From Candidatus Woesearchaeota archaeon (GTDB taxonomy: Archaea > Nanobdellota > Nanobdellia > CAZCWL01 > CAZQAZ01): a DNA stretch of 64,000 nucleotides. This document shows positions 2,426 to 25,200 of the stretch, one piece after another (positions within the stretch are counted from its first letter, which is position 1; the number at the start of each line of letters is the position of its first letter). The stretch covers positions 7,591 through 71,590 of the forward strand of contig CAZQAZ010000001.1 in NCBI GenBank assembly GCA_964591855.1, written 5' to 3'. The notes under the pieces were generated by a model, which was given only the letters and a program-made list of their open reading frames with translations, did no database searches and had not been told where the DNA came from. The translations under genes and the position numbers were made by a program.

Positions 2426-2487
2426 GGTTTATATTTGTTGACTCTTTATTTTAATTTAACTTGATAGGGTTGAAATTAAGGAAGGAG

Positions 2488-5400
2488 ATGGTCTTACTCT
2501 TATTAGTCTTGCTAATCTCAATTAGCTTTGCTGCTGAGATTATAGAGTTTGGAACGCCAAAAGTGTATTCTATTCACATAATGGATGCTAAAGGCCAGGC
2601 CCTCCAAGCAGATGTGGAGTTGAGGTCGGTAGCAGGAAGTTTAGTTACGCAATCAAGACTAAGACAAGGTACATATGACCTCTATGTTAAGCCAAAAGAC
2701 ATTCCTGTTAAGGAGATTGTCTTTAAGAAGGTTAACATTAATGGGGACTTAAGTCTTAAGCTCGACACTTTTGACAGTAAGAGATTTGTCCAAACGTATG
2801 CTATAGATCCTTCTCTTATTAACTTTGAGACAGCTGAAGTAAAAGTAACAGCAAAAGGAAAGGCATTGTACAAGTGTAAGGATTGGGATTTTGATGCAAA
2901 GGAGTGTAGAGGGATATGGGTTAAAATTAAAGACCTCACTCCTGGAGAGGAATATACCTTAACCCTCACGAAAGACGATCCTGGATTTGGGGAGGGAGAT
3001 GCTAAATCCTTGCCATCGTCTGCTTTGTACAATGGAGCGAACGTAACTACAAATGTTACAACCTCCGACAATGTATACGTTGATGTGAATGGAACACTTT
3101 ACATAAATTGGACAAATGATCTGCCGCCAACAAACATCCTCTCTTCAAATGTAACTTTTGAGATGTATAACAATCAGTCAGTGGATGTTTATTTGTTCAA
3201 CAGGAGCACATCATCTTGGGATCTCTTATCCACAATTCAAAGCAACATCACAGAAAGATATGTTAAAGTCTCACTTCCTCTTAAAACAAGCGATGATGCA
3301 AATTTAATACAGATAGCTGTCAACTCAACAAATGCTACAATTGACTATACCTTCCTAGAGATGGAGTATGAAAACATAGCACCGGAAGCAAAAGGTGCTA
3401 TATTCGTTGTTGACTCCTTACCAAGCGATCCAGATTCATGGACGGAATCAAATATAGATTCCTCAGATGATTCTATCTCTTGGAGTACAAAAGATAAGTC
3501 CCAAGACGCAATAATTGGTTTTTATTCAGCCCATGCTTCCTCTACTACTAAGGAGTTTTATTATCCAAAGTCCTTTGCAGCAAGTTGGAATCTTACTGAC
3601 TATGAGCAAGGTACAATAAACTTTTATGCTAAGGCATCCTCAAGCAAGACCTTGGATTTGGACTTGTTCGATTCTGATGGTGACGCTTTGGTGGCAACTT
3701 TAAATTTGACACAAGACTGGAAGTTTTTCTCAATAGAATTAGATAAGATGAGATATGACTGTACTATAGGGAATGGGAACTGTGATGGATTTAACTACGG
3801 TGATGTCTCAGGAGTATACATTTGGGATGGATCATCTGGATCTACTTTTGATGTTGATGTCTACATAGATGGGCTTCATTTTGATAAGGCTTTATTGTAT
3901 GGAAGGACTGTAACAGCCAAAACATATTACTACGATTATGATGGAGATCCAGAATCTGGTTCCCAATTAAATTGGTATAATAATTCTAACTACGTATCGA
4001 GTGATGAGACATATACGGTAACCTCCATAAAAGGTAACAACCTAACCCTAGAATACATTCCTAGTGATGGTACAGACTATGGACAAGGTTTTAACTACAC
4101 TAAAACGATAGATAACACACCTCCAATGGCATATGCACCAACAATCTCTCCTTCAGAAGTATACACAGACACAGACATTGCCTGTCAACCGGAAGGTGCA
4201 ACCGATGTAGATGGAGATGAGGTTTTAACGGCTATAAAATGGTACATAAACAACAGCGAAGTACTTCCAGCTGTTTTGGAGAGTTACGATAGCTTTGGAG
4301 ATCACTATGGTGTTTGTGCGAAGAATGCAACGGACTTTTATTTAACTTACTGGGTTGTTAAGACAGAAATTATCTTCGACCCACGTACTGGAAAGTCGTC
4401 GACGAAGACAACATATAACTCAAAGATTAGAGAATTTTCAAGCGTATCTGGTTCTAAGGATGTTGCTACAATAACTTCTTATGATTACTATCCTAAAGCA
4501 ATAGCATATGATGGCCATAATATTTGGTTTTATGGATCACAGAATGGCAAGATTTATAGGTTTAATATAACTTCAGGTTCTGTTGATGCTAACTTCTCTG
4601 TTGGATTCGGACCCGTGGACATGGCGTGGAATGGAACCTATCTTTATGTGTCAGATAGCTTGAATGTATATAGAGTTAATACAACTAAAGCAATACAATA
4701 CGGCAATCTTGAAAGTGGAGTAGATGCAGCAGTAGTTCTCCCTGTTAAACACAGCAGTCTGGCGATAAACTCATCTAAGTACATAGTAACAGACAGCGAT
4801 CTAATCTATGTAATTGATGAGAATTTAAGTGTTAAAGAAGTGTATCCATTTACTGATGTGAAAGAGTCGGGAGGAAATTCATTTGCAGCAAGAGGAATAA
4901 CATTTAACGAAGGTTTGTGGGCATTGTACTCAAGTAGTTCTGGTGGTTATCTAGACAAGATAAACTTAACACAACTTTATATACTCAATTCAACCTTCAC
5001 AAAACACTTTGATGTTGTAGCATGTGGTGTGCTTCCCTTCGACGGGGAAGATAAAGGTGAAGTTAATGCTTCTTCAATTAATGTGTTAAACACCCCTCCA
5101 AGCATAGATAACTGTTCCATAAATCCTTCACAAGCATACACAGATTCTAACTTAACAGCATCATCCATTGGTTATTACGATAAAGATGGGGATGTAGAAT
5201 CCAATTCCTTCTGTTCATGGTATGTGAATGACAATTTTATTGAGAACTCAACGCAGTTGAGTTACACAAACTTCAACAAACATGATGTTGTGAAGTGTAT
5301 ATACTATCCAAGCGATGGTTACGATTATGGTTCTCCTAAAGAATGTACTACAACAATCTTAAACTCGGAGCCCACCATTACCTCAACAAGCCCGGCTAAC

Positions 5401-8400
5401 GAGTCCATAGTTAACTCATTAGACTTTAGTATCACAGCTACTGACAAAGACTCAGACTCTTTGACATACTTCTTTTATGTAGATCAAACAGATGGAACAA
5501 CACTTGTGGGAACGAGTAGCGATGGTACATTCACATACACTGCTTCAGATGGAACATACTTCTGGAGAGTTAACGTCTCGGACGGAGAGGTTAACACCAC
5601 CTCTCAATTGTACAAAGTAACACTTGACACAGTTAAACCAAGCTCATCCCATATCTCTGTTAATGATACGCATGTAGGATCGTATGCAAAGTTCAGTGCA
5701 TTATGGAATGAGAATGTAGACCTTGATTATTTTATATTCTCTACAAATAACACAGGAGTGTGGGTTAATGATACAGCCGTAAGCATAAGCGGGACATCAA
5801 ACTACACAAATGTAACAAAGACCCTTAATTCAACAAGAGGTTTGGAGGTTGATTGGATAATATATGTTTGGGATAAAGCTGGGAACATGAACTCCACAGG
5901 CATACAGAAGTTGATAACAACCAATAATCCACCAGAAGCAAGGAATGTTGTGATTAAGCCAACTGACGATGTATACCCTTACACAAACCTTACTGGGGAA
6001 TATATGTACTATGATCAAGAAGGAGATCCAGAATCTGGATCTTTGTACAGATGGTACAAGAATGGAAAGCTTCTTTCAGGCGAGACGTCAACAACTCTTG
6101 AGGCTAACTTCACAGTTGGTGACAATATAACTTTTGAAGTCACACCTTACGATGGATTTGACTATGGGCAACCTGTCAATTACACGGTTACAGTAAAGTC
6201 AACATGTGAAGCCCCATCAGAAGGACAGTGGAGGATATACAATGAGTCTTGTTCCCTTACGAATGTTGATGTGGTTGTTGACGGATTGAAAGTGGATAAG
6301 GACTCCTCGCTGGAGATTAGAGACTCAAAATATACTTTGATAATCAATGGAAACTTAACTGTGGATGGAAACTTAACGATTAGTAACTCAACGGTTAAGT
6401 TTAACTGTACCTCGAGTGGTGCTTGTGGTGTGCTTGTCGAGTCCACAGGAAATCTTATCGTTGATAACGATTCTTACATTACATCTCTGAATAGCAACAC
6501 TTTCTTCTTCAAGGTTTATGGAAAGCTTCATGCGAACAACTCCACATTCGAGAAGCTTTACCTTGATGCTACCACAATACATGGAGGTATACAACTTTAT
6601 TCCAATTCAAATGTAGTAAAGAATTCTTTATTCAAGCAAAGTGATGGAGCAATGTATGCTTCTTGGGCAAATAGTACAATCTTTGAAGGGAATACTATAC
6701 TACAAAGTTATAATGCAACGAAGGGATACAACTTTGAAGCCGTTGGAATCTATGTAGAGAACTCAAAGAATTTGAGCATTAAGGGCAATGCTCTTAGCGG
6801 AACTCCTTGGGGAATAGCTTTATACAAAGTACAATCCTCGTACGTTGAAGACAATGTCATCGAAAACACAACCGGAGGAATCTACATTATAGAAACAAAG
6901 GATTTAACGGTGAAAAACAATACAATCTCAAAGATACAAGACGCAGCAGTCCAAACAGGGGATACAGACTCTAATGAGCTTTATGGTAATGCATTTACAA
7001 TGGAGAGCTCCGAGAACATTTCTCTAAGTGGGAATAATGTGAGTGATGGTGATAGAGATTCGGTTAGTGTTTATTCGCTTAGAAATAGTGGGTCGGACAT
7101 AAGCATATCTGAAGATAGGGCAGATGGTGTACGTTCTATTTTAGTTTTTGGTTATAGCCCTACAATTAGTAATCTCTCAATTAAGAGATGTACATTCACG
7201 AATGTTGGTGGGATAGATACAGGCACAGATTCTGTGCTATTAAATTACCTACTTGACTCAAACACTATATCCTTTAGCTCTGGTGGGATAGAAATACTTC
7301 ATGCAAACTCGTATGGTGTGATAAATAACAATACCTTGTCCACACCTTCTGACTTGGATTATTTAGTTTACATAAGAAAGGGAAACGTAACAAACAATGA
7401 TCTTCTGGCCAAGAAAGCTGTTCTTATTACAGAAAATATTACTTTAACAAATAATGTTATCCACTCCCAAGCAAGTGGAAGTAGAGGTATAGATTGTTCA
7501 AGTGGAGTTGGCACCATTGAAAACAATACAATCTACAATTACCAATATGGTGTGTATTATAGAGGTTGTTCATACAACCTAACTAATAATGAGATCTACA
7601 ACAATACTTATGGAGTATATCAGCCACCACAGAGTGTGAGATTAAAGGACAACCACATCTATGAGAACACATATGGAATATACACCTCCCAAGGCTTAGA
7701 TTCTGTAAACAACACATTCTGTAACAATACTATCACAGACTTGTACTCAAATTACAACAATAGTCTAGCAGCGTTCAACACATCAAATTATTTCTGCACA
7801 GGAAGCAAATCGGGTTATAGAGCGTACAATATCTTTAACAATTATAGGGTGTATGTTGTAGACCAAAACAATGAACCAGTTGGAGACGCTGTGGTTAGAA
7901 TTGAGAACTCAACTTCAGATCTTGTATCACAACTAACCACTTATTCATCCGGTTACACACCTTACACCAACATAAAGACGGATATACTCTACAACAATGG
8001 ACTACTTGTTGCAAGCAATCCACATACTCTTAAAGTAAGTAAGCCATATTACTACTCCAACACAACATCAACTAATATAACCTCAAACTCACAGACAGAC
8101 ACAGTCTCAATAACTTATGCTCCGTGTACCTACTTCGGTGGAGATTGGATTTTAATAGAGTCTTGTACTTTAAACAACGAAGACCTCACAATAAATGGCA
8201 ACATAGAAGTCCCCGAGAACATAACACTCACTCTTAACAGTACAACTTTGAGAATGAACTCTTCTTACGACGGAGAGCATAACATTACTGTATATGGTAA
8301 GCTGATAACTCTTAACAATTCGCACATAACAAATGTAACGAGCAGGTATGATCTCTTTGTTTATGGAAATACAAGCATAGACAATACGACCCTAGATAAT

Positions 8401-11400
8401 TACAGGGTCTTTGAGATATGGTCTATGAATAGCAACGTCACTAATTCCATACTGAAAGGTGGGGACGATGGTTTAAGGACGTACTCTTCGGATCTAAACC
8501 TTGAAAACGTAACAGTTACAAGCATAGGAACATCCATTTACGCTCACAACTCACAATTAAACTTAAACAGTCTAACTTTAACCAACAGTAGTGAAGGAAT
8601 ATTCTCATTCAATTCAGCCATTAATGCCACTGACTTGAAGGTTGACAACAACACCAAAGCTATAACCTTATCAAAATCAGACCTTGTGTTCACAGGTGGG
8701 AATGTCTCTTACAATGGTAGAGGAATTTATGCTGTAGATTCAAATGTATCTGTGCAATCCACAGCATTCTGTAACAACTCCCAGCAACATGTTTACGCTT
8801 TGAACACGACATTTAATACTAGCGCGTTTGGGACGTCAAACAGTTTCTGTTCAGGCGATGCAACAAAAGAGAGAGCGAGGAAAGAGTGGTACTATAGCGT
8901 TAAGGTTGTGGATTCCATAGGACAACCTATAGAAGGAGCAAAGGTGGAGTTATACAACTCAACTTCAGATTTGATTTTCACCAAGTATACAAACTCTCAG
9001 GGAACCTTTGATAAAGTTAATATAACTCAAGATTATATAAGCAGGGACGGGACTTATTATTCTTCTACACCACACACAGTAACTGCTTCTAAAGAGGCAT
9101 TCCAAACTAATACTTCAACGACTGACATAAATACCTCAAAGGTGGACACATTAACATTACAAGACACATGTTCTTATCCATCAGATGGAGATTGGATTAT
9201 AGATACGAACACATCCTGTGTTGGTAGAAACATAGTCATAAATGGAAACGTTACTGTTAACAATGGTGTGAAATTAATCTTGCGTAATTCCACATTATCT
9301 ATTAATGCTTCTGAGTACATCCCTGCAGTAACAGAGATTAAGATAGATGTTCCAGACTCTTTTACTGTAAGGGACGAAACAAGTAAGGTCAACTTAACAT
9401 GCGAGAGACCTGTTGATATATGGTGGGAGATTGTTGCTCCAGATGGAACTACTAAGAGATTCTCTGGTGGCGAAGGTATAGCTTACTCTTGGGGTGCTAT
9501 AGATCTTCTTACATCTCAGAACTTATACTATAACTTAACAAATAAAGTTGTGCAACAAGCAGTGTATTATGATAATACTTTTGGTGGATTGGGTATACTG
9601 TCTAACGGAACTTGGACATTAAGATTAACTAATTATAACACACCAAACAACTGTGTTATACATAGTTGGAACATAACTTTAAAAGACGAGAATGGAGTAG
9701 ATCATGTCTATAACAACACAACAGAAATAAAAGTCAAGCAGCCAAAACTCACTAATGTAATGAGTTATGGAGATTTGGAGCTTGTAGGTTCGAACATAAA
9801 GTCAAGTAATGACCATTATTTCATGTTTAAAGTGTATGGGCATATATACTCGGACAATACAAAGTTTGAAGACCTAGCAACTGTGAAGTATGGTGTTAAA
9901 TACATAGGTGGAGCAGCGTGGCCACTAGTGAACGGTGGAAATCTTGGTTCGTTAGGACCTGGTGGTCTTCAGATATACTCTGACAATAACACAATTAGAA
10001 ATTCTAACATCTCAAATACGCAAGAAAGAACTTTATGGTTAGAAGGGTCAAGCTTCAACTTGATAGAGAACAATTACTTCTACTCAAGAGGTTATGGTAT
10101 AGTCTTAGCATCGGCCTACAATGATAACCCTACAGCTAATAATACATTTAGAAACAATGTTATCATTGGAGGAAAGGGGAACGGTGGAAAGGATGCTTTA
10201 GACGAAAAGGTTTATGCTTACAACAACACATTCTATAATAACACATTTATTGGGTATTTGAACGATAGGGCAGTCCAGTCTTCTAATAACGCTTTCCTCA
10301 GACCTTACCCTAACTACTTCATGAGTAATATATTTAAAAATGGAGTGTACGACCAAATGGGTAAAGCAAGGTTCATAAACAACACATTCTATGGTGTAGG
10401 ATTTAAGATCCCGCCACTCGGTTACTCTTACACTTCTGAGTGTTACATAATTAATAACACATTTAACAACTCAAGGTTAGACATTGATCCATATAGAGGA
10501 GGATCATGGATAAAGATTGTTAATAATACATTTATTAGTCCTTCTACACTTCAAGTTGGGGGAGGCTACAGCTACTTGTCCAACATATTGTTTGCTAATA
10601 ACACAATTAACAACACCGAGAAAGTCTATTTCTTCAGAACAAGCTCGCTTAATGTGACTAACAATAAAGTAACTAACGCAAGAATGGTGATGACACTTAT
10701 ACGCAATGGACTTATAAGTGAAAATAAAATAATAAACGCCACAAAGCAAGATGGAGCACTAGAGGTTCTTAACTCCCATGCGAACATAACAAATAATACA
10801 ATACTTAATAGTCCAGCTAATGGGATATATGGCGCGTTGACTTCTTTCTCCTACACATCACACTTAAACATAACAGGAAATAGAATATGTAATAGTAGCG
10901 GTTATGGTATCTATCTTAAAGATGTAACATACGACCCAGCCGACTTATCTGCCAGTAATGACTTTGCATGTGAGTACAATCATAAAGGAAGGGTTTCTGT
11001 TGCATGGAGCATTAAAGCCCATACAATGGATCAAAATGGAAACGATCTTCCTGGAGCAGAGGTTACAGCAGTAAACAACACAAACGATAAGGTGTTCTCA
11101 TCGTATACAGAATACCTTGTAGATAACTGTAAAGACCAGTCTGAGTGGACGACTGTCAACATGACAATGGTGAAAGGAACGTCCTATGGTGGTTACTGGA
11201 TGATGAATGCTACGGGAGATAATGCTTTAGCACACAGATCACTTGATGGAGCGAGCGGTTATGATTACATAATGTATAGTTCTCACTGGCCAGGTTATGG
11301 TATTCCTTACTATGTAAACATCACTTACATGACAGGACCAATGGATGTGTACCTCATCAACGACACAAAAGGAACACGTTACCTTAAGATAGATAGGTAT

Positions 11401-14400
11401 AGGACTCTTGATAGGATATACTTCTACCAACCACAAGCGGGAAAGATAATGTATATAGGTTATATATACTTAGTAGGGAATACAACTGGCCAAGGAACTT
11501 CTGATTGGAAAGAAGTTGTTGAATACACGGTCAATAACTCTGGTTATAAGGTGGATACAACACCTATAGTCTTTACCGCTCATAGAAAGGGTTACAATGG
11601 AAACGTCGTGAGCTTATCTTCCTTCTCAGGACCAACCACAGTGAATATCACACTTTCTGAAAATCCTTGTGCTTACAATGGAGATGGTGACTGGAACATC
11701 AATACGACATGTGACATCCATGACATCGACGAGAATATATTTGGTAACTTAAACATTCAAACGGCAGGTAATGCTACATTCTCTAGATCCAAGTTGAGTA
11801 TTTACTCAGGAAGTGACGGGGTAAATGGCGTAAGTAATGTTGGAATACTACGTATGATAGACTCATGGGTAAAAAACATGGTAAGAGGTTATAGGATAAA
11901 GTTTGAGTCGTCTGGAGAGCTTTTGGAGTTGAACAACACAAACATAACACACTCGGCTGGTGTGAAACTCTTAGAGAATGGAAAGGCAATAATTCATGGA
12001 GGCAATATAACTGATAGTTCTTCACATGGATTGATGCTCTACAACTCAACAGATAACCTCGTCCAAGGAACATTATTCTCGTCTAGTAATGGTTATGGTA
12101 TATACGCCTTAAATTCATCCTTGAACAAAGACGTTGCAAACCTAAGCTCGTTTGTATCTAACAGCCTTGGGAGAGTTAAGGTAGATTGGTACCTAAAAGT
12201 ACGCACAGAGGATGAGACAGGTACTCCTATTGAATCTGCTGATGTGAAGGTTATAGATCAATACAACACTACAACATCTCTTTCAACGGATGCAAATGGT
12301 GAAACTCCTACAACTATCTTTACAGAATACATTGTGAATAACAGTGGTGGTATGGAGGAGTACTCCCCATACAAGATAAGCGCAAGCAAAACCAATCACA
12401 AGTCTAACTCTACGACTACGGATTTAAATGAGTCCAAAGTTGTATTGTTGATCCTCAATACGGACTATACTTCACCAAGTAAAGCCCCTGTTTTGACGGT
12501 TAAGTCTACAAACACATCTGATCCTACAGGGTGGTCTAGTGAGTATGTAAATCTAACTTGGACAGAAGCATTGGACGACAGGGGTATTTATTTCTATGAG
12601 GTTGTAAGAAATGAAGGAGCAAATAGTGTCTCCTTAGCAAATGTCTCAAACTCCACATTCAATTACGTAGACACAGCTGTACAATCTGACAAAGAGTACT
12701 CTTATTACATAGTTGCATACGACAGAGCTTACAATACTAACACTTCCAATGTTGAGAGTATTAAGGTAGATAAGAATGCACCAAATATTACTGTAACAGA
12801 TCCAGCTAATGGATCAACCGTATCATCTCCAGTGACCTTTAAGGTTAGTTATAGCGATTACTCTGAAACAAATTGTTACATAGCATTCGATTCGAACACC
12901 ACATACAACTTGATGTCAAACTCCGGATTAACAAGTGGTGTTGCAACCTACTCTGAAGACTTTACGGAGGGAACACACACTGCACATATAAAATGTGTGG
13001 ATTACTTAGGTCATGAAAATAGCACAAATGTAACCTTCTATAATATAGTACCACCAGGTGGCGTTTATGATGAAACCCCACCTACAACCTACTGTGATTC
13101 AGATGGACTGTACCACAATGAGACTTATACTGTTAACTTAACTTGTAACGACGAAGACTTTTCATACATGCAGTATTGTTACTCAACAGATACATGTGAA
13201 CCAACCACGTCAACAACTGACAACCCAGTTAGATTAACATTTGAGCCGGAGAATGCAAACTACACCATAAGATTTAGGTCCATAGACACAAATGGTAACG
13301 AAGAGAGTATTAAAGAATGTATTGTTAGGATGGTAAGCTGTACACCATTTGAGAGATTCGACCCAGAGAAAGGATGTGTGCCTTTGGAATTACCTGACTG
13401 TAGCTCACAGTGTGCAGCTTATGACGACTGGTACTTTAAGGACTTAAGTTGTCATTGTTACAATTATGAGACTCTTTATCCAGATGCAAGAGTGGAACCA
13501 ACGAATGGAACATCGAATGTGACATTTATGTATTATGTAGCCTCACAGGATAGGACAGTTGTAACAAGAATGTACATCAACGGAGAGTTAGTGGGTGGGA
13601 TAGAGCCACCACCATTACCTCCATTGCCACCACTTCCAAAGCCAGGTATACATCCTATAGCAGTGGAGAGCACACAAACCCTTCAAGCTAAAAGCACAAC
13701 AAATGCATATACGAGTAGAACATTTAGTCCTTCGTTCAATAACTTCACTGTATTCCAGGCTGGAAAGATAATTGATATGGATACAAAAGAAGATGGATTT
13801 GGGGAGTCATTTGCTGACGTCTCAGATTGGGACGCAATCAACGGAGAAATCTCAACAGATGGAGACGTGGCTACCTTATCCTGTAATAGTGGGACAGCAA
13901 CATTTGAGACAGACATACCTAAGTACTATTCTAACATTGAGATCAAAGGAGACTATGTTGACGTAGAACAATCAGATGGGAAGTTAAAGATAGTCCTACA
14001 GTGTCCAAAGACTGTCCACTTAGATGCAATAAGATTATACGACTCAATAACCGAGTATGATCCATGGACACAACCTTATGAGTACAGAATCCCTGTGAGG
14101 GTTGTATCTTCACCTACCATTAAGCATTACATTAGAGTACCATCTAACTCCATTGTAACAAATGAATATGGCAATCCAACGTCAATAACGTCTGAAGGGT
14201 TGTATTATATTTACTTTAACGCATCTTCATTCACTAACTTAGACCTTCCAGACGACTTAGTAGCCATACCTTCTGCAGTTCAGAAAATACAAATTGAAAA
14301 CTATCCAGTTGTGGACGACATACTCTTCAATGTGGAGAGTGTGAATTACTCTTCAATAATAATAAACTATAATGCTTCGTATGCTACAGGCGACGATAGA

Positions 14401-15552
14401 GATTTGGTTGTAGAATGTAGCTTTGGAAATGACACTTGTGTAGGATCAAATGGACAATGTGTCATTAGTCCAACACAGTGTGCTGACGAGGTTGTGTGTA
14501 GAGCATACGATCCAAAGTACTCTAATATATACTATCCAGGTTCAATTGTCATACCTGTGGATAGAAACAATCCAATCATATGTGGTCTTTGTGGTGGGGA
14601 GCTAGTTGGTAGCGTGTGTTGTGGAGATGAGAGTGGAGAATATCCAATATACAAGATCGTACAGAGTGGTACAACTACTACATCTGTTACAACAGATGAA
14701 GCATGTTGTGCTTCAAGTACAGCGTGTGTTAACTCACAAGTGTGTTACAGTTCTGGATCTTCAACAGTCTTTGGAAGTAAGGAATACACATGTAATAACA
14801 ATGTTTGGGTACCTGGAGCTCAACCTTCAAGTGGAGGTGGAGGAGGACCTGGAGGTGTGACTAGACCAACAGTTGGAGACATAAGACTTGTGTCAACAGA
14901 AGCTGTTGAGCCTAAGGCAAAACCAAAGCAAAATGTTACATTCGTATCTAAGTTATGTAATTATGGTAAAGGAGACATTCCTGGAGGGTTGAGTGTTGAA
15001 GTGTACGAGAGGGTAGGAGGCATAAAATCAAGAGGTAAAGTCAACTCTACTATACCAAAAGGTTACTGTGGTGACGTGGTATGGACTTCCATAGCACCAG
15101 AGGAAGGATATATATACACACCAATTCCAGAAGTTAAAATTAGCATAAATCAAAGGAGTTATACTGTACCTCCCGCGTATCCAATTTTACAACCAGAGCC
15201 TGAGAATGATATTGTTGGATTCAATGAGAAGGTTTATGCGAACATATCAGGAGTTGTATTCGTAAACAACACATATGTGAAAGCAAACCTTACCGATGCT
15301 GTATTGAAGGTTTACTCACCAGAAGGGAAGTTAGTGTACTCCAAACCAATAGGCTACTTGCCAGATAAAGGCATTGTTGTTGGCATAAACCCAACTGAGA
15401 TAAATGCAATAGGAGATAGATACTTAATCGTAGTTGAGGCATCTGCTGGATCGTATGTGGGCAGTGGTGGTTCATCCTTCTTGCAAGGAGGATTCATAGT
15501 ACCACAGGCTGGACAAGCACTTGATGACTACCTTAAAGAGCTAAACAAATAA
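2488..15552 (+). CDS. Giant secreted, probably heavily N-glycosylated cell-surface protein (about 4354 aa from ATG 2488; 4363 aa if TTG 2461 is used).
   Basis: One uninterrupted 13.1-kb ORF. N-terminal signal MVLLLLVLLISISFAAEI; ATG 2488 is preceded by GGAAGGAG. N-x-S/T sequons are extremely dense. One KCKDWDF module lies at about nt 2790-3000. Three roughly 70-aa repeats have the form [YF]YDxDGDxESGS..W[YF]xN..P-SDG-x-DYG. Long runs of NNT-rich right-handed beta-helix-like repeats occur at about nt 6200-7800, 8100-8900 and 9900-10900. Several transthyretin/CarbopepD-regulatory-like inserts are present (e.g. YRVYVVDQNNEPVGDAVVRIENST). An FN3-like segment lies at about nt 12480-12760. A PPPLPPLPPLPKP linker is at nt 13606-13644. 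The C-terminus is Cys-rich. There is no C-terminal TM. Confidence 0.8.
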   Translation: MVLLLLVLLISISFAAEIIEFGTPKVYSIHIMDAKGQALQADVELRSVAGSLVTQSRLRQGTYDLYVKPKDIPVKEIVFKKVNINGDLSLKLDTFDSKRFVQTYAIDPSLINFETAEVKVTAKGKALYKCKDWDFDAKECRGIWVKIKDLTPGEEYTLTLTKDDPGFGEGDAKSLPSSALYNGANVTTNVTTSDNVYVDVNGTLYINWTNDLPPTNILSSNVTFEMYNNQSVDVYLFNRSTSSWDLLSTIQSNITERYVKVSLPLKTSDDANLIQIAVNSTNATIDYTFLEMEYENIAPEAKGAIFVVDSLPSDPDSWTESNIDSSDDSISWSTKDKSQDAIIGFYSAHASSTTKEFYYPKSFAASWNLTDYEQGTINFYAKASSSKTLDLDLFDSDGDALVATLNLTQDWKFFSIELDKMRYDCTIGNGNCDGFNYGDVSGVYIWDGSSGSTFDVDVYIDGLHFDKALLYGRTVTAKTYYYDYDGDPESGSQLNWYNNSNYVSSDETYTVTSIKGNNLTLEYIPSDGTDYGQGFNYTKTIDNTPPMAYAPTISPSEVYTDTDIACQPEGATDVDGDEVLTAIKWYINNSEVLPAVLESYDSFGDHYGVCAKNATDFYLTYWVVKTEIIFDPRTGKSSTKTTYNSKIREFSSVSGSKDVATITSYDYYPKAIAYDGHNIWFYGSQNGKIYRFNITSGSVDANFSVGFGPVDMAWNGTYLYVSDSLNVYRVNTTKAIQYGNLESGVDAAVVLPVKHSSLAINSSKYIVTDSDLIYVIDENLSVKEVYPFTDVKESGGNSFAARGITFNEGLWALYSSSSGGYLDKINLTQLYILNSTFTKHFDVVACGVLPFDGEDKGEVNASSINVLNTPPSIDNCSINPSQAYTDSNLTASSIGYYDKDGDVESNSFCSWYVNDNFIENSTQLSYTNFNKHDVVKCIYYPSDGYDYGSPKECTTTILNSEPTITSTSPANESIVNSLDFSITATDKDSDSLTYFFYVDQTDGTTLVGTSSDGTFTYTASDGTYFWRVNVSDGEVNTTSQLYKVTLDTVKPSSSHISVNDTHVGSYAKFSALWNENVDLDYFIFSTNNTGVWVNDTAVSISGTSNYTNVTKTLNSTRGLEVDWIIYVWDKAGNMNSTGIQKLITTNNPPEARNVVIKPTDDVYPYTNLTGEYMYYDQEGDPESGSLYRWYKNGKLLSGETSTTLEANFTVGDNITFEVTPYDGFDYGQPVNYTVTVKSTCEAPSEGQWRIYNESCSLTNVDVVVDGLKVDKDSSLEIRDSKYTLIINGNLTVDGNLTISNSTVKFNCTSSGACGVLVESTGNLIVDNDSYITSLNSNTFFFKVYGKLHANNSTFEKLYLDATTIHGGIQLYSNSNVVKNSLFKQSDGAMYASWANSTIFEGNTILQSYNATKGYNFEAVGIYVENSKNLSIKGNALSGTPWGIALYKVQSSYVEDNVIENTTGGIYIIETKDLTVKNNTISKIQDAAVQTGDTDSNELYGNAFTMESSENISLSGNNVSDGDRDSVSVYSLRNSGSDISISEDRADGVRSILVFGYSPTISNLSIKRCTFTNVGGIDTGTDSVLLNYLLDSNTISFSSGGIEILHANSYGVINNNTLSTPSDLDYLVYIRKGNVTNNDLLAKKAVLITENITLTNNVIHSQASGSRGIDCSSGVGTIENNTIYNYQYGVYYRGCSYNLTNNEIYNNTYGVYQPPQSVRLKDNHIYENTYGIYTSQGLDSVNNTFCNNTITDLYSNYNNSLAAFNTSNYFCTGSKSGYRAYNIFNNYRVYVVDQNNEPVGDAVVRIENSTSDLVSQLTTYSSGYTPYTNIKTDILYNNGLLVASNPHTLKVSKPYYYSNTTSTNITSNSQTDTVSITYAPCTYFGGDWILIESCTLNNEDLTINGNIEVPENITLTLNSTTLRMNSSYDGEHNITVYGKLITLNNSHITNVTSRYDLFVYGNTSIDNTTLDNYRVFEIWSMNSNVTNSILKGGDDGLRTYSSDLNLENVTVTSIGTSIYAHNSQLNLNSLTLTNSSEGIFSFNSAINATDLKVDNNTKAITLSKSDLVFTGGNVSYNGRGIYAVDSNVSVQSTAFCNNSQQHVYALNTTFNTSAFGTSNSFCSGDATKERARKEWYYSVKVVDSIGQPIEGAKVELYNSTSDLIFTKYTNSQGTFDKVNITQDYISRDGTYYSSTPHTVTASKEAFQTNTSTTDINTSKVDTLTLQDTCSYPSDGDWIIDTNTSCVGRNIVINGNVTVNNGVKLILRNSTLSINASEYIPAVTEIKIDVPDSFTVRDETSKVNLTCERPVDIWWEIVAPDGTTKRFSGGEGIAYSWGAIDLLTSQNLYYNLTNKVVQQAVYYDNTFGGLGILSNGTWTLRLTNYNTPNNCVIHSWNITLKDENGVDHVYNNTTEIKVKQPKLTNVMSYGDLELVGSNIKSSNDHYFMFKVYGHIYSDNTKFEDLATVKYGVKYIGGAAWPLVNGGNLGSLGPGGLQIYSDNNTIRNSNISNTQERTLWLEGSSFNLIENNYFYSRGYGIVLASAYNDNPTANNTFRNNVIIGGKGNGGKDALDEKVYAYNNTFYNNTFIGYLNDRAVQSSNNAFLRPYPNYFMSNIFKNGVYDQMGKARFINNTFYGVGFKIPPLGYSYTSECYIINNTFNNSRLDIDPYRGGSWIKIVNNTFISPSTLQVGGGYSYLSNILFANNTINNTEKVYFFRTSSLNVTNNKVTNARMVMTLIRNGLISENKIINATKQDGALEVLNSHANITNNTILNSPANGIYGALTSFSYTSHLNITGNRICNSSGYGIYLKDVTYDPADLSASNDFACEYNHKGRVSVAWSIKAHTMDQNGNDLPGAEVTAVNNTNDKVFSSYTEYLVDNCKDQSEWTTVNMTMVKGTSYGGYWMMNATGDNALAHRSLDGASGYDYIMYSSHWPGYGIPYYVNITYMTGPMDVYLINDTKGTRYLKIDRYRTLDRIYFYQPQAGKIMYIGYIYLVGNTTGQGTSDWKEVVEYTVNNSGYKVDTTPIVFTAHRKGYNGNVVSLSSFSGPTTVNITLSENPCAYNGDGDWNINTTCDIHDIDENIFGNLNIQTAGNATFSRSKLSIYSGSDGVNGVSNVGILRMIDSWVKNMVRGYRIKFESSGELLELNNTNITHSAGVKLLENGKAIIHGGNITDSSSHGLMLYNSTDNLVQGTLFSSSNGYGIYALNSSLNKDVANLSSFVSNSLGRVKVDWYLKVRTEDETGTPIESADVKVIDQYNTTTSLSTDANGETPTTIFTEYIVNNSGGMEEYSPYKISASKTNHKSNSTTTDLNESKVVLLILNTDYTSPSKAPVLTVKSTNTSDPTGWSSEYVNLTWTEALDDRGIYFYEVVRNEGANSVSLANVSNSTFNYVDTAVQSDKEYSYYIVAYDRAYNTNTSNVESIKVDKNAPNITVTDPANGSTVSSPVTFKVSYSDYSETNCYIAFDSNTTYNLMSNSGLTSGVATYSEDFTEGTHTAHIKCVDYLGHENSTNVTFYNIVPPGGVYDETPPTTYCDSDGLYHNETYTVNLTCNDEDFSYMQYCYSTDTCEPTTSTTDNPVRLTFEPENANYTIRFRSIDTNGNEESIKECIVRMVSCTPFERFDPEKGCVPLELPDCSSQCAAYDDWYFKDLSCHCYNYETLYPDARVEPTNGTSNVTFMYYVASQDRTVVTRMYINGELVGGIEPPPLPPLPPLPKPGIHPIAVESTQTLQAKSTTNAYTSRTFSPSFNNFTVFQAGKIIDMDTKEDGFGESFADVSDWDAINGEISTDGDVATLSCNSGTATFETDIPKYYSNIEIKGDYVDVEQSDGKLKIVLQCPKTVHLDAIRLYDSITEYDPWTQPYEYRIPVRVVSSPTIKHYIRVPSNSIVTNEYGNPTSITSEGLYYIYFNASSFTNLDLPDDLVAIPSAVQKIQIENYPVVDDILFNVESVNYSSIIINYNASYATGDDRDLVVECSFGNDTCVGSNGQCVISPTQCADEVVCRAYDPKYSNIYYPGSIVIPVDRNNPIICGLCGGELVGSVCCGDESGEYPIYKIVQSGTTTTSVTTDEACCASSTACVNSQVCYSSGSSTVFGSKEYTCNNNVWVPGAQPSSGGGGGPGGVTRPTVGDIRLVSTEAVEPKAKPKQNVTFVSKLCNYGKGDIPGGLSVEVYERVGGIKSRGKVNSTIPKGYCGDVVWTSIAPEEGYIYTPIPEVKISINQRSYTVPPAYPILQPEPENDIVGFNEKVYANISGVVFVNNTYVKANLTDAVLKVYSPEGKLVYSKPIGYLPDKGIVVGINPTEINAIGDRYLIVVEASAGSYVGSGGSSFLQGGFIVPQAGQALDDYLKELNK

Positions 15553-15558
15553 ATACCA

Positions 15559-16224
15559 ATGGTTCTTAACTTTCATATGGATGAGCCTCTTAATTTTGAT
15601 GACGTGTACAATGAATGGGTTCAAATAGACAGACAAGTTTCAGACCCTATTGTAATTAACTTTGGAAAGTTTACTTTGATTTTCATTTTGATTAATGTGC
15701 TGGTTTATGTCTTAAGTGCATTTTTTCCTTTAGTTCAGCTATTTGCTATGAATAGAGTTTATATGTTCCAGCTTTGGAGGTGGATCACATCACTTTTCTT
15801 CCACTTTAGCATAACACATCTTCTATTCAATATGATTTCTTTGTTTATATTTGGGAACATAATAGAAAGGAGGTTGGGGTCAAGAAACTTTTTGCTCCTT
15901 TACTTTCTTTCTGGAATATTTGGTAATGTAGGATTTTTATTGTTTTCAGGTCCATACACTTTTGGAGCTGGAGCATCTGGTTCTATATTTGGTTTGATAG
16001 GTGCAGCAACCATCCTTTATCCAAACCTTGTACTTTACATAAACTTCATACCTCTTCCATTGAAGGTTGCAGGACCCCTTATGGCCTTAGGCGAGTTTAT
16101 ACTCCTACTTGGTGCAAGGGATGGGATAGCACATTCCGCACACGTCTTTGGATTTGTTGTTGGGATAGTGCTAGCATTTTACTTAAGGAGGAGAGAGCTT
16201 GGATACAGTAGATCTAGTTCTTAA
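15559..16224 (+). CDS. Rhomboid-family intramembrane serine protease.
   Basis: 221-aa polytopic membrane protein with GASGSIFG (catalytic Ser in GxSG) and downstream AHSAHVFGF (catalytic His). Starts 7 nt after the giant ORF stop. Confidence 0.7.
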   Translation: MVLNFHMDEPLNFDDVYNEWVQIDRQVSDPIVINFGKFTLIFILINVLVYVLSAFFPLVQLFAMNRVYMFQLWRWITSLFFHFSITHLLFNMISLFIFGNIIERRLGSRNFLLLYFLSGIFGNVGFLLFSGPYTFGAGASGSIFGLIGAATILYPNLVLYINFIPLPLKVAGPLMALGEFILLLGARDGIAHSAHVFGFVVGIVLAFYLRRRELGYSRSSS

Positions 16225-16957
16225 TGAGCTGAAGAGATCAAAGAAGTATAAGAGCTTACATGAGGATCTCTTAATCCCAATAATCCTTAAACATTTGCCT
16301 GAGACACAAGATACTAGAACTAAGGAATTCAAGGACAAGATTAAAAGCATTAAGAGAGAGCTTCACAAAGCATATGCAGCTTACATCCAAAACAAGAGAA
16401 GAATAGAGACCTTACTTAAGAAAGGTGCAAGTGAAGAGGAGATAATGGCTCTTCACTCTTCCACTAAGGAAAGACTTCCTTACTACAAGGAATTTTACTC
16501 ATCGATTTTTAAGATCACAGGGAAGCCAAAGAGAGTTGCGGACATAGGGTGTGGCTTAAATCCCCTTTCCTACAAGTATTTTGGATGTAAACCCTTCTAC
16601 TTTGCAATGGATGTAGACCCTTTCGTTATCAATGCGGTTAACACTTACTTCAATATGAAAGGCATAGATGGAAGAGCTGTGCTTGGTTCAGCACTTGAAC
16701 TTAAATACGATTTCAAAGATTATGACGTTGTTCTGATGTTGAAGTTACTCCCATTACTTGAATCCCAAAGGAAAGGAATCACAGAGCAGCTTTTGTCCCA
16801 AATAAAATCAAGGTACATTGTATTCTCCCTCCCAACGAGGTCTCTTTCGTCTAGAAAGCCACTTGACACTTCCTTTTTCAAGGAAAAGATACCTTACAAA
16901 AAGCTTATTAAGTTTCCTAACGAAGAGGTTTTAGTATACGAAAGCCCCGTCGTCTAG
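16199..16957 (+). CDS. Class I SAM-dependent methyltransferase, FmrO/Rmt(ArmA)-like signature.
   Basis: 252-aa ORF with motif I VADIGCGLNPLSY. GCG-x-NPL is the signature I associate with 16S rRNA m7G1405 methyltransferases. Overlaps the rhomboid stop (26 nt) and the tRNA-Gln 5' end (15 nt). Confidence 0.45.
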   Translation: MDTVDLVLNELKRSKKYKSLHEDLLIPIILKHLPETQDTRTKEFKDKIKSIKRELHKAYAAYIQNKRRIETLLKKGASEEEIMALHSSTKERLPYYKEFYSSIFKITGKPKRVADIGCGLNPLSYKYFGCKPFYFAMDVDPFVINAVNTYFNMKGIDGRAVLGSALELKYDFKDYDVVLMLKLLPLLESQRKGITEQLLSQIKSRYIVFSLPTRSLSSRKPLDTSFFKEKIPYKKLIKFPNEEVLVYESPVV

Positions 16958-19239: not shown

Positions 19240-22200
19240 ATGGAGATACTGAAAGCAGCAATTTATATAGTCCTAGCTACGATTTTCATAATAGTTATAC
19301 CAGTCTATCTCATCACGGGTTATGCAACATGGGCTAAGGACTTTGTCTCTTACACAGAGGATTTAAACCTTTACTTCGATCACAATGCAACATTTGAATG
19401 GAGTCCATCGTACATTAAGAGTGATATGGGCTTGTATGCCATATATCTCTCCGCTGAGGTGTACGGAGATGGAAACGCAACAGTTTACCTTGAAACAGAT
19501 GGAGAACCAAAAGTCTTTGAATTCCCAAAAGAAGGAAGTTATTTAACAGGGAGATCTATCACGATACAAGGCAGATCTAGAGGAACAATATCTATAGAAC
19601 CTAAAAAACCTATTGTAAAAGAGCCTACCAAAGCCTCTCTATCAAAAGTTGTTCTCACAGATGAATGTCTAGACACTTGCGACCTTTCAAAGTATAACAT
19701 TTCGTACCCTCTCAAGTTTAAAGTCGTCTTGAACAACGCCACGGTAAGATTAACGAGTATAAAGTATGTGTGGTATAGGAAGTTAGATAAAGTTGAGTTT
19801 ACACTTCCAGTTGTTGGCAGTGACGGAACCTTCTATCCTTCAGAGGTTCTTATTAGGGATCCAGAGGGAAATGTTGTTTTCCAAACTGAAAATAAGAAGA
19901 CTTTATTTGGCAGTACGCCTTTTGTGGTAAAACCTGGTGATTACAATATAGAGTTAGCATTTGAGGGTACACCTCTAACCAAACTTGAGTTCAAGAATGT
20001 TAGTATTAGCGTAGCTTCCAATCCAAAAGTTAAGTTTGAGGATTACTCAACATCAGATTACGTAGCCTTCGCCGTTGACCCTAATTTAGACTTTGAGGAT
20101 GGCAAAGTACAGTTTGTATCCAATGGAGGAGAGATATACAAATGTAAGGATTGGGATTGGAGTAACAAGACATGTAACTCTGCATGGGTTTTCCTTCTTA
20201 ATACAACAAAAGGAGAGGTTGTAACTTTAGACATTAACGAATCTGATCCCGCTTTCGTGGAGCTTGTGAATGTATCAGGTGTTTCAACTCTTGCTGGGAA
20301 TAAGGGTTTTGTTCCACCAATACTTATTGATGGTAAGGTGATAGCAAGAGATAGATCTGGAAGGGAGATAGAGAAATACTCTGCAATTTACAAGTCAGGT
20401 AAGTTAGTAAAGTATAACAATGAGACATACAAGAAGATCTCTAAAGGCCTTTACAATGTAACATTGCTTATTAATAAGACACACGTGAAGAAAGTAGATG
20501 TAGAGAACGCTTTACTTGATAGAGATACACACGAAATTGTGGTGGATGAGCTTGAGCCGGATCCCAATTCTTCGTATAAGCTTGTGTACCACATTAACGC
20601 ATCCTCTCTACAGTTCAAAGCATTAAATGTTAATGTGGTTGCAAAAGGGAATATTGTGTATGAATGTAAAGACTGGGATTTCTCGGGGGGGAAATGTAAT
20701 GGAGACTTAGATCCTGTAAGAGTTGTAAGTCCTGGGAAAGCATACACTCTTTCCCTCAATGATGAAGAAGTAGTTCTAGTAGAGAAAGCAGAGCCAATAA
20801 ACTGTGTAGCTGAGGATCTAAGGCAGAAAGACGAGTTCATTGATGCATGCGATTCTCCTGATGGGACAAGTTTGGCAAAAGATGATGGTGTAATTGAGAG
20901 GCACTTCTATGGTAAATCAACATCGAAGAAGTATGGTGGTGTTTTAATTAACCTTTCATCTTCTAATTTAACAAACTGTACAAACATTGAGAAGGTTGAG
21001 TTGTGTTATGAATGGTGGAGAGGTCCCGTTAAGCCTAAGGATTGTGAGATAAGTGTAGACACAGGCGATGGAAATTGGAATAAAGTTGTGACTTCTTGTC
21101 CGAACAAAGCTGCAAATCCAGGAATTAGTTGTGTGGACATAACAAACTTGAAGTCATGGGCTTGTAGCGACTTCACAAGCGGCAAAATTAGGATAAAATC
21201 CCAACTTGGTGGTGCAGTGGGAAACAACGGAAATTCATATGCTGTATGGGACGCTCTTTACATAAATGTGTCTTATTCTACAAGTAGTACCTTCGTTAAG
21301 TTGATTGATCCCCCTAATGGTACAGAGGACTCAAATGGTCAAGTAAACTTTGTCTACGATCTTTCAGACTATAGTAAGTTCGACCAGTGTTCTTTAATAC
21401 TAGACAATAAAGTTGTAGCGACAGATTATGGGTTTTCCAGAAATAGGAACAGATTCCATGTGGTAGATTTGGACGAGGGCATACATAGCTGGAAAATTTC
21501 GTGCCTCTCTTCAAATGAATATTACAATACAACAGAAAGAATAATTTATGTAACTAGAGGAGGAGCTGGGGGGAGTGTAGAAATTCCTATTGTTATGAAA
21601 AATTCTAGGGAGGATGCAATACCATCTAAATTTATTTTCAAAGATTCAAGTAACGGTGAAGTTGAGCTCGAAACTAATTATGGGGGATTGATCTCAGCTA
21701 ACCTTAGTAAAGGTAAGTATGATATAGATATAATACCCAAAAATGGACGAATAAAAAAGATAGAAATTAAAGGTGCGATGATCGACAAGGACACAGCTGC
21801 TCTAATGTTTTTTGAGGACAACATAACAACCAATGGACCTGTGAATAGATTTGCAATAAATCCACTAATAGACTTTACAAGTGCAAACATAACAGTTACT
21901 GCAAGAGGGACAAGGTTGCTTAAGTGTAAAGATTGGAATTGGACATCACAGACATGTGATGGAAGGTGGACTTTTATTAAGGACATAACTCCAGGTACGA
22001 ATTACACAATCACACTTACCCCAGAGGATCCAGGTTATGCAGAGTCTGGTGCTATAATGTGTTATACTTCTCCTTGTGTGGCTGGCTCTGACCTACTTAT
22101 GTCAAGAGACAACCTTGATACTCCAGAGCCAAACTTCCCAAACACAATTGATACTTGTACGGATGGAACGTCAGGTTCTTATAAATCGGACGAGTCTATA

Positions 22201-25200
22201 GAGAACATCACCGTCACAGACTTAAACTCAACCTACTTTAGGGTAGGAGACACAGTGAAGGTTGAGATTTGGGCGTACTGTTATGGTTCTGGATCAAGTG
22301 ACAACATCAACTTTGTATACGCAAATAACACCTCAGAACCTGTTTGGAAGGTAGTTGATTATGTTGACCCATGTCCTGGCGGTGGCTTCCAGAAAGTGTC
22401 TACTACATTCCAGTTGGAGAACGTAACGGGAAATCATTCTGTTAGGGGTATAATCCAATACTCTGGTGATGTGACAAGTACATGTGGTACAGGTGATTAC
22501 GACGACAACGATGATGTCTCGTTTAAGGTTTATTCTAGTTCTACAGAGAGAATAGTTGTTCCTGACAAAAACTTGTATGTGGATTGTAGAGGTAATGATA
22601 ATATTGAAATACTTGGCTTAAATTGGAATTCGAACATAAATGTCACGTTAAATGTCACATACTTGGAGACAGGAGAAAATGTGTTGTACGAGAATGTGAC
22701 TACCAACTCAAGTGGTGAGTTCTTAAGGGTGCTTCCAATAGCTTGGATTTTAGGTAACGGGAAGTATAAAATATTTGCCTTTGAATGGAACAACACCTCA
22801 CTTAATGCCTCAAGTTCATTTGATGTGGACATCCCAAGGTGTGTAGTGGTAAGGCCTGTTGACAATCAGGAGATATATGAAGGATTTAAGGTGGTGTATT
22901 GGTCGGACTACGATAATGATACATTACATACCTTACGGTTAGATGATGGTTCACCGGAAGGTTATGTGGGGGGATCAACTTCAAACGTTCTTATAAGAGC
23001 TAACGAGTACAACATAAAACATTCTGATTACTGGGATGAGAATGTTACAGTTTGTGGTTACATGGGCTATGAGTACAATGAAAATGGTGATACTAACCCA
23101 CTTGTTAATGTTACAGTTGATACAACAGTTACACCTTATCAAATAGAGCTGACAAATTCTATATCATCCCCTCAATGGCATTGTATTAATGTATCGAAGT
23201 CGTACTTCTCAGATGGCTATCATAAGATAGGATTTAAATGTGAGAACTGTCAAAGTGGTGCGTCTACGAATCAGGAAGTATCTTGGTCCATAATGGCAGA
23301 CTCTAAGCAGAGGGAATCTTACTACTGGAATGGTACAGATTGGATTCATTACAAATATACATATTACATTAGAGTTAACTACACGGAACTTGGAGATGAC
23401 ACCTCAATACAAGCCCACCTTCCAAATGGAACTGTAGATACGATAGATACAATCTTGAAGACGGAGAAGGTAGATCGTGCAGTAACAACGTACAATAACA
23501 CACTTCTTGGGAACTACACATTCTGTGTATACTGGAAAGGTTGTACCTCAAATAGAACGGTAGAATCTGTGGACACTAGCCCTCCAAACATAACAGTGGA
23601 ATCCCCACTTAACCAAACATACTTACAAGATGTTTGGTTTAATGTAACAGCTGTGGACAATTATAAGGTGGGGTCTTGTAAATTCTCATTAGATGGACAA
23701 AGCAATACAACTATGAGCAACGACTCATATACTCACTTCTACTATCATAATAGCAGTATGACTATCGGACAACACAATGTAGTATTCTACTGCAATGACT
23801 CAGAAGGTAACCTTAATCAAACGGATACAATTTATTTCACAGTTGTTGGAAATGCTGCACTTTATGCTGTTAAGTATAATATATCGGACTTTCAGTTTGC
23901 TTCAGACACATACGTTGATAGTGTATTAATTTACTTCAATACATCAGCCTCGAGCACCAACTTTGCACTACTTTCAACGATGAATGTTAGGAAGGTGGAT
24001 GGAACTCTACCCAACGACGTCTACTGTTTAGTTAGAGTTGATGGGAAGAACATAAGAGAGGAGAAAGTGAGAACTGTCAATACGACAGACGATGAAGGAT
24101 CTACAGGGTTAGCACCAGTTAAGTTTTCAGTTGGGCCTGGAGAGCACAACTTAACAGTATCATTCAAGAGAAGTGGAGATGGGACAGTGAATGTGAGCGA
24201 CTTTGATCTTGTTTTACTTAAAGCAAGATCGAACCTTGACAATGAAGTTAGGCTCCAGATTACAAATGAGTCTTACACGCATTCTTCAAGCAGTTTTGAG
24301 CCAGCATTTAACTGGACTGTTGTAAGAGATAATCAAGCAAGCACATATATCTTCCTTAAGCAAACTACAACTTCAACTGCAGCTTCAGATGTAAGCTACT
24401 ACATAGAAAATCTAAACACAAGTTTGAAGTCACCTTACTGGTCTGGTAGGATAGAGTCGGCTTCAGATGTAAGCTCTCTTTTTGGTACACACATAGATTC
24501 AGAGTACGGTAATAGTACTTTCACAATCCAATCAAAGACTCAGACAGGCCAAGCAACAGTAAATGTCTCTATCTTGGATTTGGACCTTAAAGATAGTGGG
24601 GGAAATGTAATAGATCACTTCAACGTGACCAACTCGTCCTCTACGCTCACACAAAACTTGGTTCTATCGCAAGGCTTACATAAGGTAGCAAGTGCTACCA
24701 TAACTCCAAAGAGTGGGGATAGTTATGTAGTATCTGCAGTTTTATCCTTGAACTCAACGAGCTCAGGCACGTACACAGTGATAATTAATTCTACAGACAT
24801 AGGGGAAGATAATTGTAGCTCAAAAAAGGAAATCTATATCCCAGATGGCTCAGCTCGTATGGTTGGTATAGTAACAGAGTGTACAGGTATGAGTATTGGA
24901 AATAGTTATACAATTGACTTATGGGTGAAAGTTCCACAGGGTTCAACATTGAGTGTACTTGACGAGAATCTTGTAGGTCTAGAGGCAAAGGTGTTTGATA
25001 CCCAAACAGGAAATCTTCCTCCAGCACCAAATGATATAACGAATCCAACAGATGGAGCCCTCTTAAAAGGAAGTGTTAACATAACTTGGGACGAGTTCGT
25101 AGACCCAAACGGAGACAGTGTTACTTACAATATCTCCTTATTTAATCCAGATGGAACATTCAACAGCACTATTAATGGCAGTACAACCTTTACTTACCAG

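Follow-up and report, generated by a model that had tools for sequence, protein, structure and literature searches.

Two giant genes and their module copies

The stretch of DNA analyzed here (the window; 64,000 nucleotides, G+C content of about 38%) carries a gene set of archaeal appearance, with genes for an IF-2B family protein, HerA, a family B DNA polymerase, SecD/SecF, a rhomboid protein, and MgtE, along with an isolated 5S rRNA and four tRNAs. Two of its genes are of giant size (Table 1). Judged from the sequence, the start of ORF1 is more likely ATG 2488 (4,354 aa) than TTG 2461; a GGAGG motif lies upstream of ATG 2488, and the start of P0058, a relative of ORF1 with 88% identity, aligns with it. 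ORF1 begins with an N-terminal hydrophobic signal or anchor, continues with the module considered here, and then runs into beta-helix/NosD, CarboxypepD_reg, and Big_13 regions; Pfam covers only a small share of its length (beta-helix/NosD, one CarboxypepD_reg, and Big_13). ORF2, in which Pfam detected nothing beyond a weak Big_9 match, is identical to P0152 and shares 97% identity with a partial protein named Candidatus Aenigmarchaeota archaeon, which assigns the window to a DPANN archaeon. Both proteins are very rich in N-x-S/T sequons (4.1 per 100 aa in ORF2), and a transmembrane segment past the N-terminal hydrophobic signal or anchor was looked for and found in neither of them. The signal or anchor, together with the sequons, indicates export.

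Table 1. Positions of the two giant genes and of the module copies in the window
Feature	Position (nt)	Strand	Description
Giant ORF1	2461..15552	+	4,363 aa if counted from TTG 2461
ORF1 copy, full module	2548..3006	+	ORF1 aa 30-182, numbered from TTG 2461; profile match E 8e-56
ORF1 copy, lobes			N lobe, ~aa 30-108; C lobe, ~aa 109-179 (alignment A1)
ORF1 copy, conserved C lobe	2791..3000	+	aa 111-180; YAIDPS ... LYKCKDWDFDAKEC ... PGEEYTLTLTKDDPGFGE
ORF1 copy, C-x2-W-x6-C loop	2875..2907	+	CKDWDFDAKEC, ORF1 aa 139-149
Giant ORF2	19240..26352	+	2,370 aa; N-terminal transmembrane anchor and three modules
ORF2 copy 1	19789..20274	+	aa 184-345
ORF2 copy 1, loop	20143-20175	+	CKDWDWSNKTC, ORF2 aa 302-312
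ORF2 copy 2	20314..20799	+	aa 359-520; ~14 aa past copy 1
ORF2 copy 2, loop	20665-20697	+	ORF2 aa 476-486
ORF2 copy 3	21574..22059	+	aa 779-940
ORF2 copy 3, loop	21925-21957	+	ORF2 aa 896-906

The original prediction had placed one copy of a KCKDWD-containing module in ORF1 and three in ORF2, and all four were recovered at these places, with BLASTP E values of 2e-29, 1e-20, and 4e-14 for the ORF1 copy against the three ORF2 copies; the module is indeed common to both giant proteins. The sequence pattern proposed for it holds except in ORF2 copy 2, the most divergent of the four, in which the motif reads YECKDWD and DPG is missing. Within one protein, the copies share 22 to 39% identity (alignment A1). 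A fifth copy was sought with a four-copy profile in the six-frame translation of the window, and none was found (next best match, E 0.9). An antisense ORF (2682-3071, minus strand) overlaps the segment from 2791 to 3000, in which the conservation lies in the plus-strand frame.

The similarity among the four copies reaches about 75 residues upstream of the proposed pattern, and hence the repeating unit in the window is about 150 to 165 aa long. In homologues, the full module has a median length of 169 aa, and its shortest tandem period is 130 aa. With separate profiles for the two halves, 185 of the 190 detectable N halves were followed by a C half, which, given the minimum period of 130 aa, means that the halves do not occur independently. 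The module of about 80 aa that had been proposed is therefore too short: that stretch covers the conserved C lobe alone, whereas the whole unit measures 130 aa or more, and its halves are never apart. The KCKDWD segment is best read as the C-terminal, conserved one of two lobes that together make up an extracellular all-beta module of about 130 to 180 aa.

Conservation, predicted structure, and comparison with known families

An exhaustive HMMER search over 1.84 billion cluster representatives (cut-off E ≤ 1e-3) returned 921 representatives, 757 of them at E ≤ 1e-10 and 131 at E ≤ 1e-30, and the module is thus by no means confined to the two giant ORFs. A word-indexed homology search gave no matches with the four-copy alignment as the query and only eight proteins with the bacterial member P0039; the lack of matches reflects a limitation of the index and not the absence of a family. 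Among the best 150 of the 921 representatives, most have a length of 1,000 to 6,900 aa (longest family protein, 6,856 aa); these 150 hold 353 instances of the module, with one to seven per protein. In the conserved half, the consensus reads YAIDPT..NFT.ATVTVTA.G..LYKC(K/x)(D/E/N)W(N/D)F..Q.C.G.W.....PG..YTF.LTP.DPGF.E. Two Cys, a Trp, and the final Glu do not vary across the 50 sequences of alignment A2, and K, F, G, and W in or around the loop hardly do; the Trp and the Glu are shared by archaeal and bacterial members. The emphasis originally placed on the conserved cysteines was well founded, as nothing in the module is better conserved among the hundreds of homologues than the Cys pair and the Trp. 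The pair is retained in 96 to 97% of 359 instances, and its spacing, which had been singled out as a point to check in homologues, is constant, with nine residues between the two Cys (C-x2-W-x6-C) in 286 of 286 pattern matches. Most of the other conserved positions are of the kind that maintains a fold, namely Gly, Pro, aromatic residues, and alternating T-x-T strands, to which the Cys pair itself may be added.

The two lobes differ in their conservation. Mean pairwise identity is 49.5% in the C lobe (72 to 80 aa) versus 22% in the N lobe (79 to 117 aa). AlphaFold2 models are all-beta for both copies modeled, with 11 strands in the ORF1 copy (pLDDT 95, pTM 0.87) and 13 strands in ORF2 copy 3 (pLDDT 87, pTM 0.82). 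In the latter, a low-confidence hinge marks the junction between a seven-strand N lobe and a six-strand C lobe. The N lobe has five to seven strands and differs between copies in sequence as well as in length; six strands make up the C lobe. According to the models, the N lobe would be a transthyretin/CnaB-like (prealbumin-type) sandwich. DSSP analysis of the ORF1-copy model revealed a mini hairpin within the Cys-Cys loop, in which W113-D114 pair with E119-C120. The C-x2-W-x6-C loop is presumed from the sequence to be closed by a disulfide (Cys139-Cys149 in ORF1), and two invariant Cys at a fixed spacing fit a disulfide better than a thioester. The invariant Trp of the loop presumably packs on the sheet, and the geometry of the module termini is inferred to be end to end.

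The original prediction could not place the module in any described family, and this assessment holds in Pfam-A, NCBIfam, and the PDB sequences. For the four window copies, Pfam-A (2025 copy) gave nothing better than E 0.04, and for 50 diverse members it gave scattered subthreshold chance matches, the commonest being Ig_ILCR1 (5 of 50; best E, 3.6e-4). No more than two of 50 members matched any one NCBIfam family (release 20, 2026; best E, 0.0013). Searches of the PDB sequences with profiles A1 and A2 retrieved chance matches only, among them an 18-residue antibody VH "YYC..W"-like stretch (E 0.008) and a ribosomal protein (E 0.48). Likewise, Foldseek comparison of the whole-module model with the PDB gave no significant match (best E, 0.35), and the top structural matches of the ORF2 copy 3 model were weak and generic, covering 73 to 109 of its 163 residues. 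Judged by its sequence, the module is thus a new family, without a match in any of these three collections, and as a beta-sandwich repeat of surface proteins this new family belongs to an ordinary type of domain. Literature searches yielded no description of this domain.

The nearest likeness is to transthyretin-like/CarboxypepD_reg and CnaB domains. The N lobe opens with their typical "v.D..G.pi..A.V.l" pattern, and, like CnaB domains and B repeats, the module is used in tandem within anchored surface proteins. However, only about 75 to 100 of the roughly 160 module residues superpose on transthyretin-like/CnaB folds, and these folds have no counterpart of the conserved C lobe with its Cys-Trp-Cys loop. 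Membership in CarboxypepD_reg (PF13620) was rejected, since hhalign of A2 against the CarboxypepD_reg domains of the window itself (the repeats of ORF1 and a domain of a neighboring gene) gave a probability of 8.3% over 29 columns. The beta-sandwich accessory domains of fervidolysin (1r6v) and of the SleC pre-pro form (9h68) align over 78 to 96 residues with 7 to 18% identity, and with a best Foldseek E of 0.35 there is no evidence of homology or of a shared function.

Another point of comparison is the SPEARE proteins of Nanohaloarchaeota, proteins of giant size that lie mostly outside the cytoplasm, carry several adhesion domains, and are thought to mediate interaction with the host; similar sequences have been reported in Woesearchaeota, Aenigmarchaeota, and Micrarchaeota (PMC6642349). 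A SPEARE protein has a transmembrane segment close to its C terminus and combines adhesion domains with serine protease and type III restriction-endonuclease domains (PMC6642349). In contrast, the sole hydrophobic anchor of ORF1 and ORF2 is N-terminal, and Pfam shows neither a protease nor a restriction-enzyme domain in them, so that they do not qualify as SPEARE proteins. Two other giant proteins with the module, P0005 and P0011, do have a late transmembrane segment, but both lack a restriction-enzyme domain. The text of PMC6642349, as searched, does not mention the KCKDWD module.

Distribution and sequons

In a taxonomic scan with one genome per GTDB species, 195 loci with the module were found. 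Among the 80 of these 195 loci that were listed, nearly all have titles naming Woese-, Pace-, Nano-, Aenigm-, or Micrarchaeota; for some the label is generic or doubtful, and Peribacteria is named in one case. Viral contigs contributed a single locus, which rules out a virus-associated domain. As a proxy for the origin of a protein we used its sequon density, with fewer than 1.5 N-x-S/T sequons per 100 aa taken as bacterial-like and at least 2.5 as archaeal-like; by this proxy, about 12 of the best 150 representatives are bacterial-like and 128 archaeal-like. Several family members are bacterial. P0039 consists of four modules and a C-terminal PG_binding_1 domain, with little else, and its gene neighbors are mraZ, mraW, a PBP transpeptidase gene, and a Mur ligase gene; P0034 adjoins the gene for ribosomal protein bL27; and P0004 has six modules and adjoins ruvA. 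Cluster mates of the bacterial members are named Candidatus Paceibacterota and Candidatus Nomurabacteria. The module proteins with a peptidoglycan-binding domain form a coherent orthologous group, in which the modules correspond position for position, and the modules of P0004 are closest to those of archaeal-like proteins as classed by sequon density (44 to 47% identity). The family appears to be restricted to episymbiotic lineages, the DPANN archaea and CPR bacteria being known episymbionts. That ultra-small lineages of archaea and of bacteria have this building block in common implies that envelope components have been transferred between the domains.

Sequon density is 3 to 6 per 100 aa in the archaeal members versus 0.4 to 1.4 in the bacterial-like ones. 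In archaeal modules, sequons recur at three positions, one of which is an Asn inside the Cys-Cys loop (48% of the archaeal copies); the bacterial modules are without these recurrent sequons. As far as the sequons tell, the archaeal module is probably N-glycosylated.

Possible functions: stalk, binding domain, or assembly unit

What might be the function of such a module? The original prediction suggested a binding or assembly domain, whereas the architecture of the proteins favors a spacer or scaffold. Of 150 family proteins, 107 have a hydrophobic segment at the N terminus, and in 34 of these 107 the first module follows within 30 aa, as it does in ORF1. Consecutive modules are separated by 15 aa or less in 84 of 203 pairs. 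A CBM96 domain comes directly after the module in 35 cases, and the giant members also carry Laminin_G_3, fn3, Big_13, and Big_7 domains. Several unannotated domain types follow the module directly as well: Cys-rich domains after ORF2 copies 2 and 3, a propeller-like repeat, and a Gly-rich/Cys-rich/transmembrane tail. The proximity to the anchor, the abutting tandem copies, the neighboring "payload" domains, the sequons, the fold-type conservation, and the confident beta models all speak for a rigid, glycosylated, disulfide-stapled stalk or spacer of adhesin-like surface proteins, and we give this reading about an even chance of being correct. In this model, the module would be a building block of adhesin-like proteins whose location at the cell surface is inferred, namely, of giant proteins that start with a hydrophobic anchor or signal in DPANN archaea and of cell-wall-bound proteins in some CPR bacteria. 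Copies arranged head to tail, or placed ahead of payload domains such as CBM96, laminin-G-like, beta-helix, or Ig-like domains, may form a mechanically robust stalk that projects and orients the payload past the envelope, toward a host or a substrate.

B repeats and BIg extender domains of bacterial adhesins are analogous spacers. The bacterial extenders (BIg/Big_13, SdrD B repeats, and the extender repeats of RTX adhesins) follow the same logic of tandem beta-sandwiches between an anchor and ligand-binding domains; however, the module is a larger, two-lobed unit with a conserved, presumably disulfide-closed loop and belongs to a different sequence family. Furthermore, those extenders are known from classical pathogens, whereas the module is found in DPANN archaea and CPR bacteria.

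Two observations sit less easily with a spacer. The C lobe, with a mean identity of about 50% and an invariant Trp and Glu, is unusually conserved for such a role and would fit a conserved interaction surface, and the apparent restriction to episymbiotic lineages hints at host contact rather than generic scaffolding. It is therefore imaginable, although we consider it the less probable explanation, that the module is lectin-like or host-binding and that the aromatic-rich loop (Y-K-C-x-D-W-N/D-F ... C-x-G-x-W) binds a surface glycan or an envelope polymer, with tandem arrays providing multivalent avidity to a host cell or to the cell's own wall or S-layer. The most conserved residues do cluster in and around this one loop, across archaeal and bacterial members alike, the lineages concerned are those of known episymbionts, and the frequent neighbors include the carbohydrate-binding CBM96 and a peptidoglycan-binding domain. 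However, the sequon at the loop Asn is present in about half of the archaeal copies, and a glycan, if the site is used, would cover the putative binding site, which argues weakly against the loop as a ligand pocket. Copies beside the N-terminal anchor are cell-proximal, whereas the binding tips of known adhesins are usually distal, and the module as a whole has no match in sequence or fold to any CBM or lectin family.

Unlikely, in our opinion, is a role in self-association, in which copies on the same or on neighboring giant proteins would bind each other and give rise to fibres or a surface lattice. The position of the first copy right behind the N-terminal hydrophobic segment (the 34 of 107 proteins mentioned above), the presence of the module in two different giant proteins of one genome, and the combination of a conserved C lobe with a variable N lobe are consistent with assembly, but the identity of copies within one protein, just 22 to 39%, is typical of tandem structural domains rather than of homotypic interfaces. 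Very improbable is a self-modifying covalent domain, be it by a CnaB/SpyCatcher-like isopeptide, a thioester, or Asp-Pro autocleavage before the last strand: although the module offers candidate residues (a conserved Lys, Asp, and Glu, and Cys plus Gln; conservation is 90% or more for K109, D144, and P145 and complete for E149), ORF2 copy 2 has Glu in place of the conserved C-lobe Lys, the CnaB-resembling N lobe lacks the invariant Lys/Asn/Glu triad (only one Ile exceeds about 65% conservation), the loop Gln of a thioester domain (TED/TIE) is missing from three of the four window copies, and the matches to ZU5-type autoproteolytic sandwiches (ZU5/FIIND/GAIN/Nup98) in a first run were not reproduced with a second model. 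D-P-G is also a common tight turn.

In sum, we propose that the KCKDWD segment is part of a stalk module of giant surface proteins. Such proteins, which over most of their length lack annotation, are among the few genomic clues to host attachment in DPANN archaea and CPR bacteria. The module explains a recurring stretch of 130 to 180 aa, in up to seven copies per protein, in at least 921 protein clusters, and it yields a clean annotation profile and a confident structural model for these proteins. It would make a sound new entry in Pfam/InterPro and is tractable for expression and biophysics. Its noteworthy feature is the distribution in both archaea and bacteria, in the DPANN and CPR lineages. 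Current concepts stay unchanged unless a specific host-binding role is demonstrated. It is conceivable, if rather doubtful, that the module is a dedicated host-recognition or attachment domain that DPANN archaea and CPR bacteria have passed to each other by horizontal transfer and whose Cys-Trp-Cys loop binds a widespread envelope component. If this were true, the episymbiotic lifestyle would have in the module a molecular signature common to both prokaryotic domains.

The start of ORF1 and the genes that follow it

The listed start of the giant surface-protein gene ORF1 is TTG 2461 (window 2461-2490), and an ATG at 2488 is preceded by AAGGAAGGAG. The ATG start agrees with P0058, a family protein 88% identical to ORF1; initiation at the TTG would give the protein a Lys/Arg-rich n-region, as is typical of signal peptides. 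A gene for a rhomboid-family intramembrane protease comes next, and its product could process the giant proteins at their N-terminal anchors. The tRNA-Gln(CTG) gene overlaps the last codons of an FmrO-like methyltransferase ORF (16199-16957) and contains the predicted ATG (16967) of an MgtE ORF; the true start of at least the MgtE ORF probably lies downstream of this codon.

Features discussed in this part (window coordinates, except for P0039)
Feature	Position	Strand	Remark
Rhomboid-family protease gene	15559-16224	+	begins 7 nt past ORF1 stop
tRNA-Gln(CTG)	16943-17015	+	
Cys-rich domain after ORF2 copy 2	about 20800-21280		ORF2 aa 520-680
Cys-rich domain after ORF2 copy 3	about 22060-22540		ORF2 aa 940-1100
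286-aa ORF	26359-27219	+	immediately 3' of ORF2; own signal peptide
ORFs of 529, 154, 185, 234 aa	27227-29831 and 30939-31643	+	downstream of ORF2
Third large ORF, 1,469 aa	54738-59147	+	
P0039, CPR-bacterial family member	L081 6001-8631		four modules + PG_binding_1

Cys-rich domains of ORF2 and its downstream ORFs

Behind the second and third KCKDWD modules of ORF2, the second giant gene, lie Cys-rich domains, neither of which was matched by Pfam. Both fall into one heterogeneous single-linkage cluster of 109 segments, together with the post-module segments of many family proteins, and these segments may represent a second undescribed domain family that partners the KCKDWD module. The 286-aa ORF is a stand-alone paralogue of the ~280-aa C-terminal region of ORF2 (compared over 25834-26352), with 81% identity between the DNA repeats 25834-26133 and 26695-26994 and a 43-aa protein stretch without any difference (TFTLHYYDNYGDWSINVSVRDNSNALAYNDSETFYYSKLAA). 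Each of the four ORFs further downstream encodes a signal peptide, a C-terminal transmembrane segment or both, and none is matched by Pfam; they may be additional envelope components that share a transcript with ORF2. The third large ORF has neither a Pfam match nor a KCKDWD module.

Giants with SPEARE-like topology and CPR-bacterial members

In a subfamily of giants (P0003, P0005, P0006, P0010, P0011, P0014, and others), one module closes the extracellular part and is followed by 'SFSAFSIKE', poly-Gly, a Cys-rich segment of ~100 aa, a transmembrane helix, and another 300 to 1,200 residues in which Pfam found nothing. This topology resembles that of SPEARE, the giant multi-adhesion-domain proteins of Nanohaloarchaeota (PMC6642349), but the restriction-enzyme domain is missing. 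Among CPR bacteria, the module was present at L081, L084, and L082. P0039 adjoins an mraZ-mraW-PBP-Mur ligase cluster, and a six-module family protein (P0004) adjoins ruvA. These CPR-bacterial members and their gene neighbourhoods indicate that the module is shared across domains, by DPANN and CPR.
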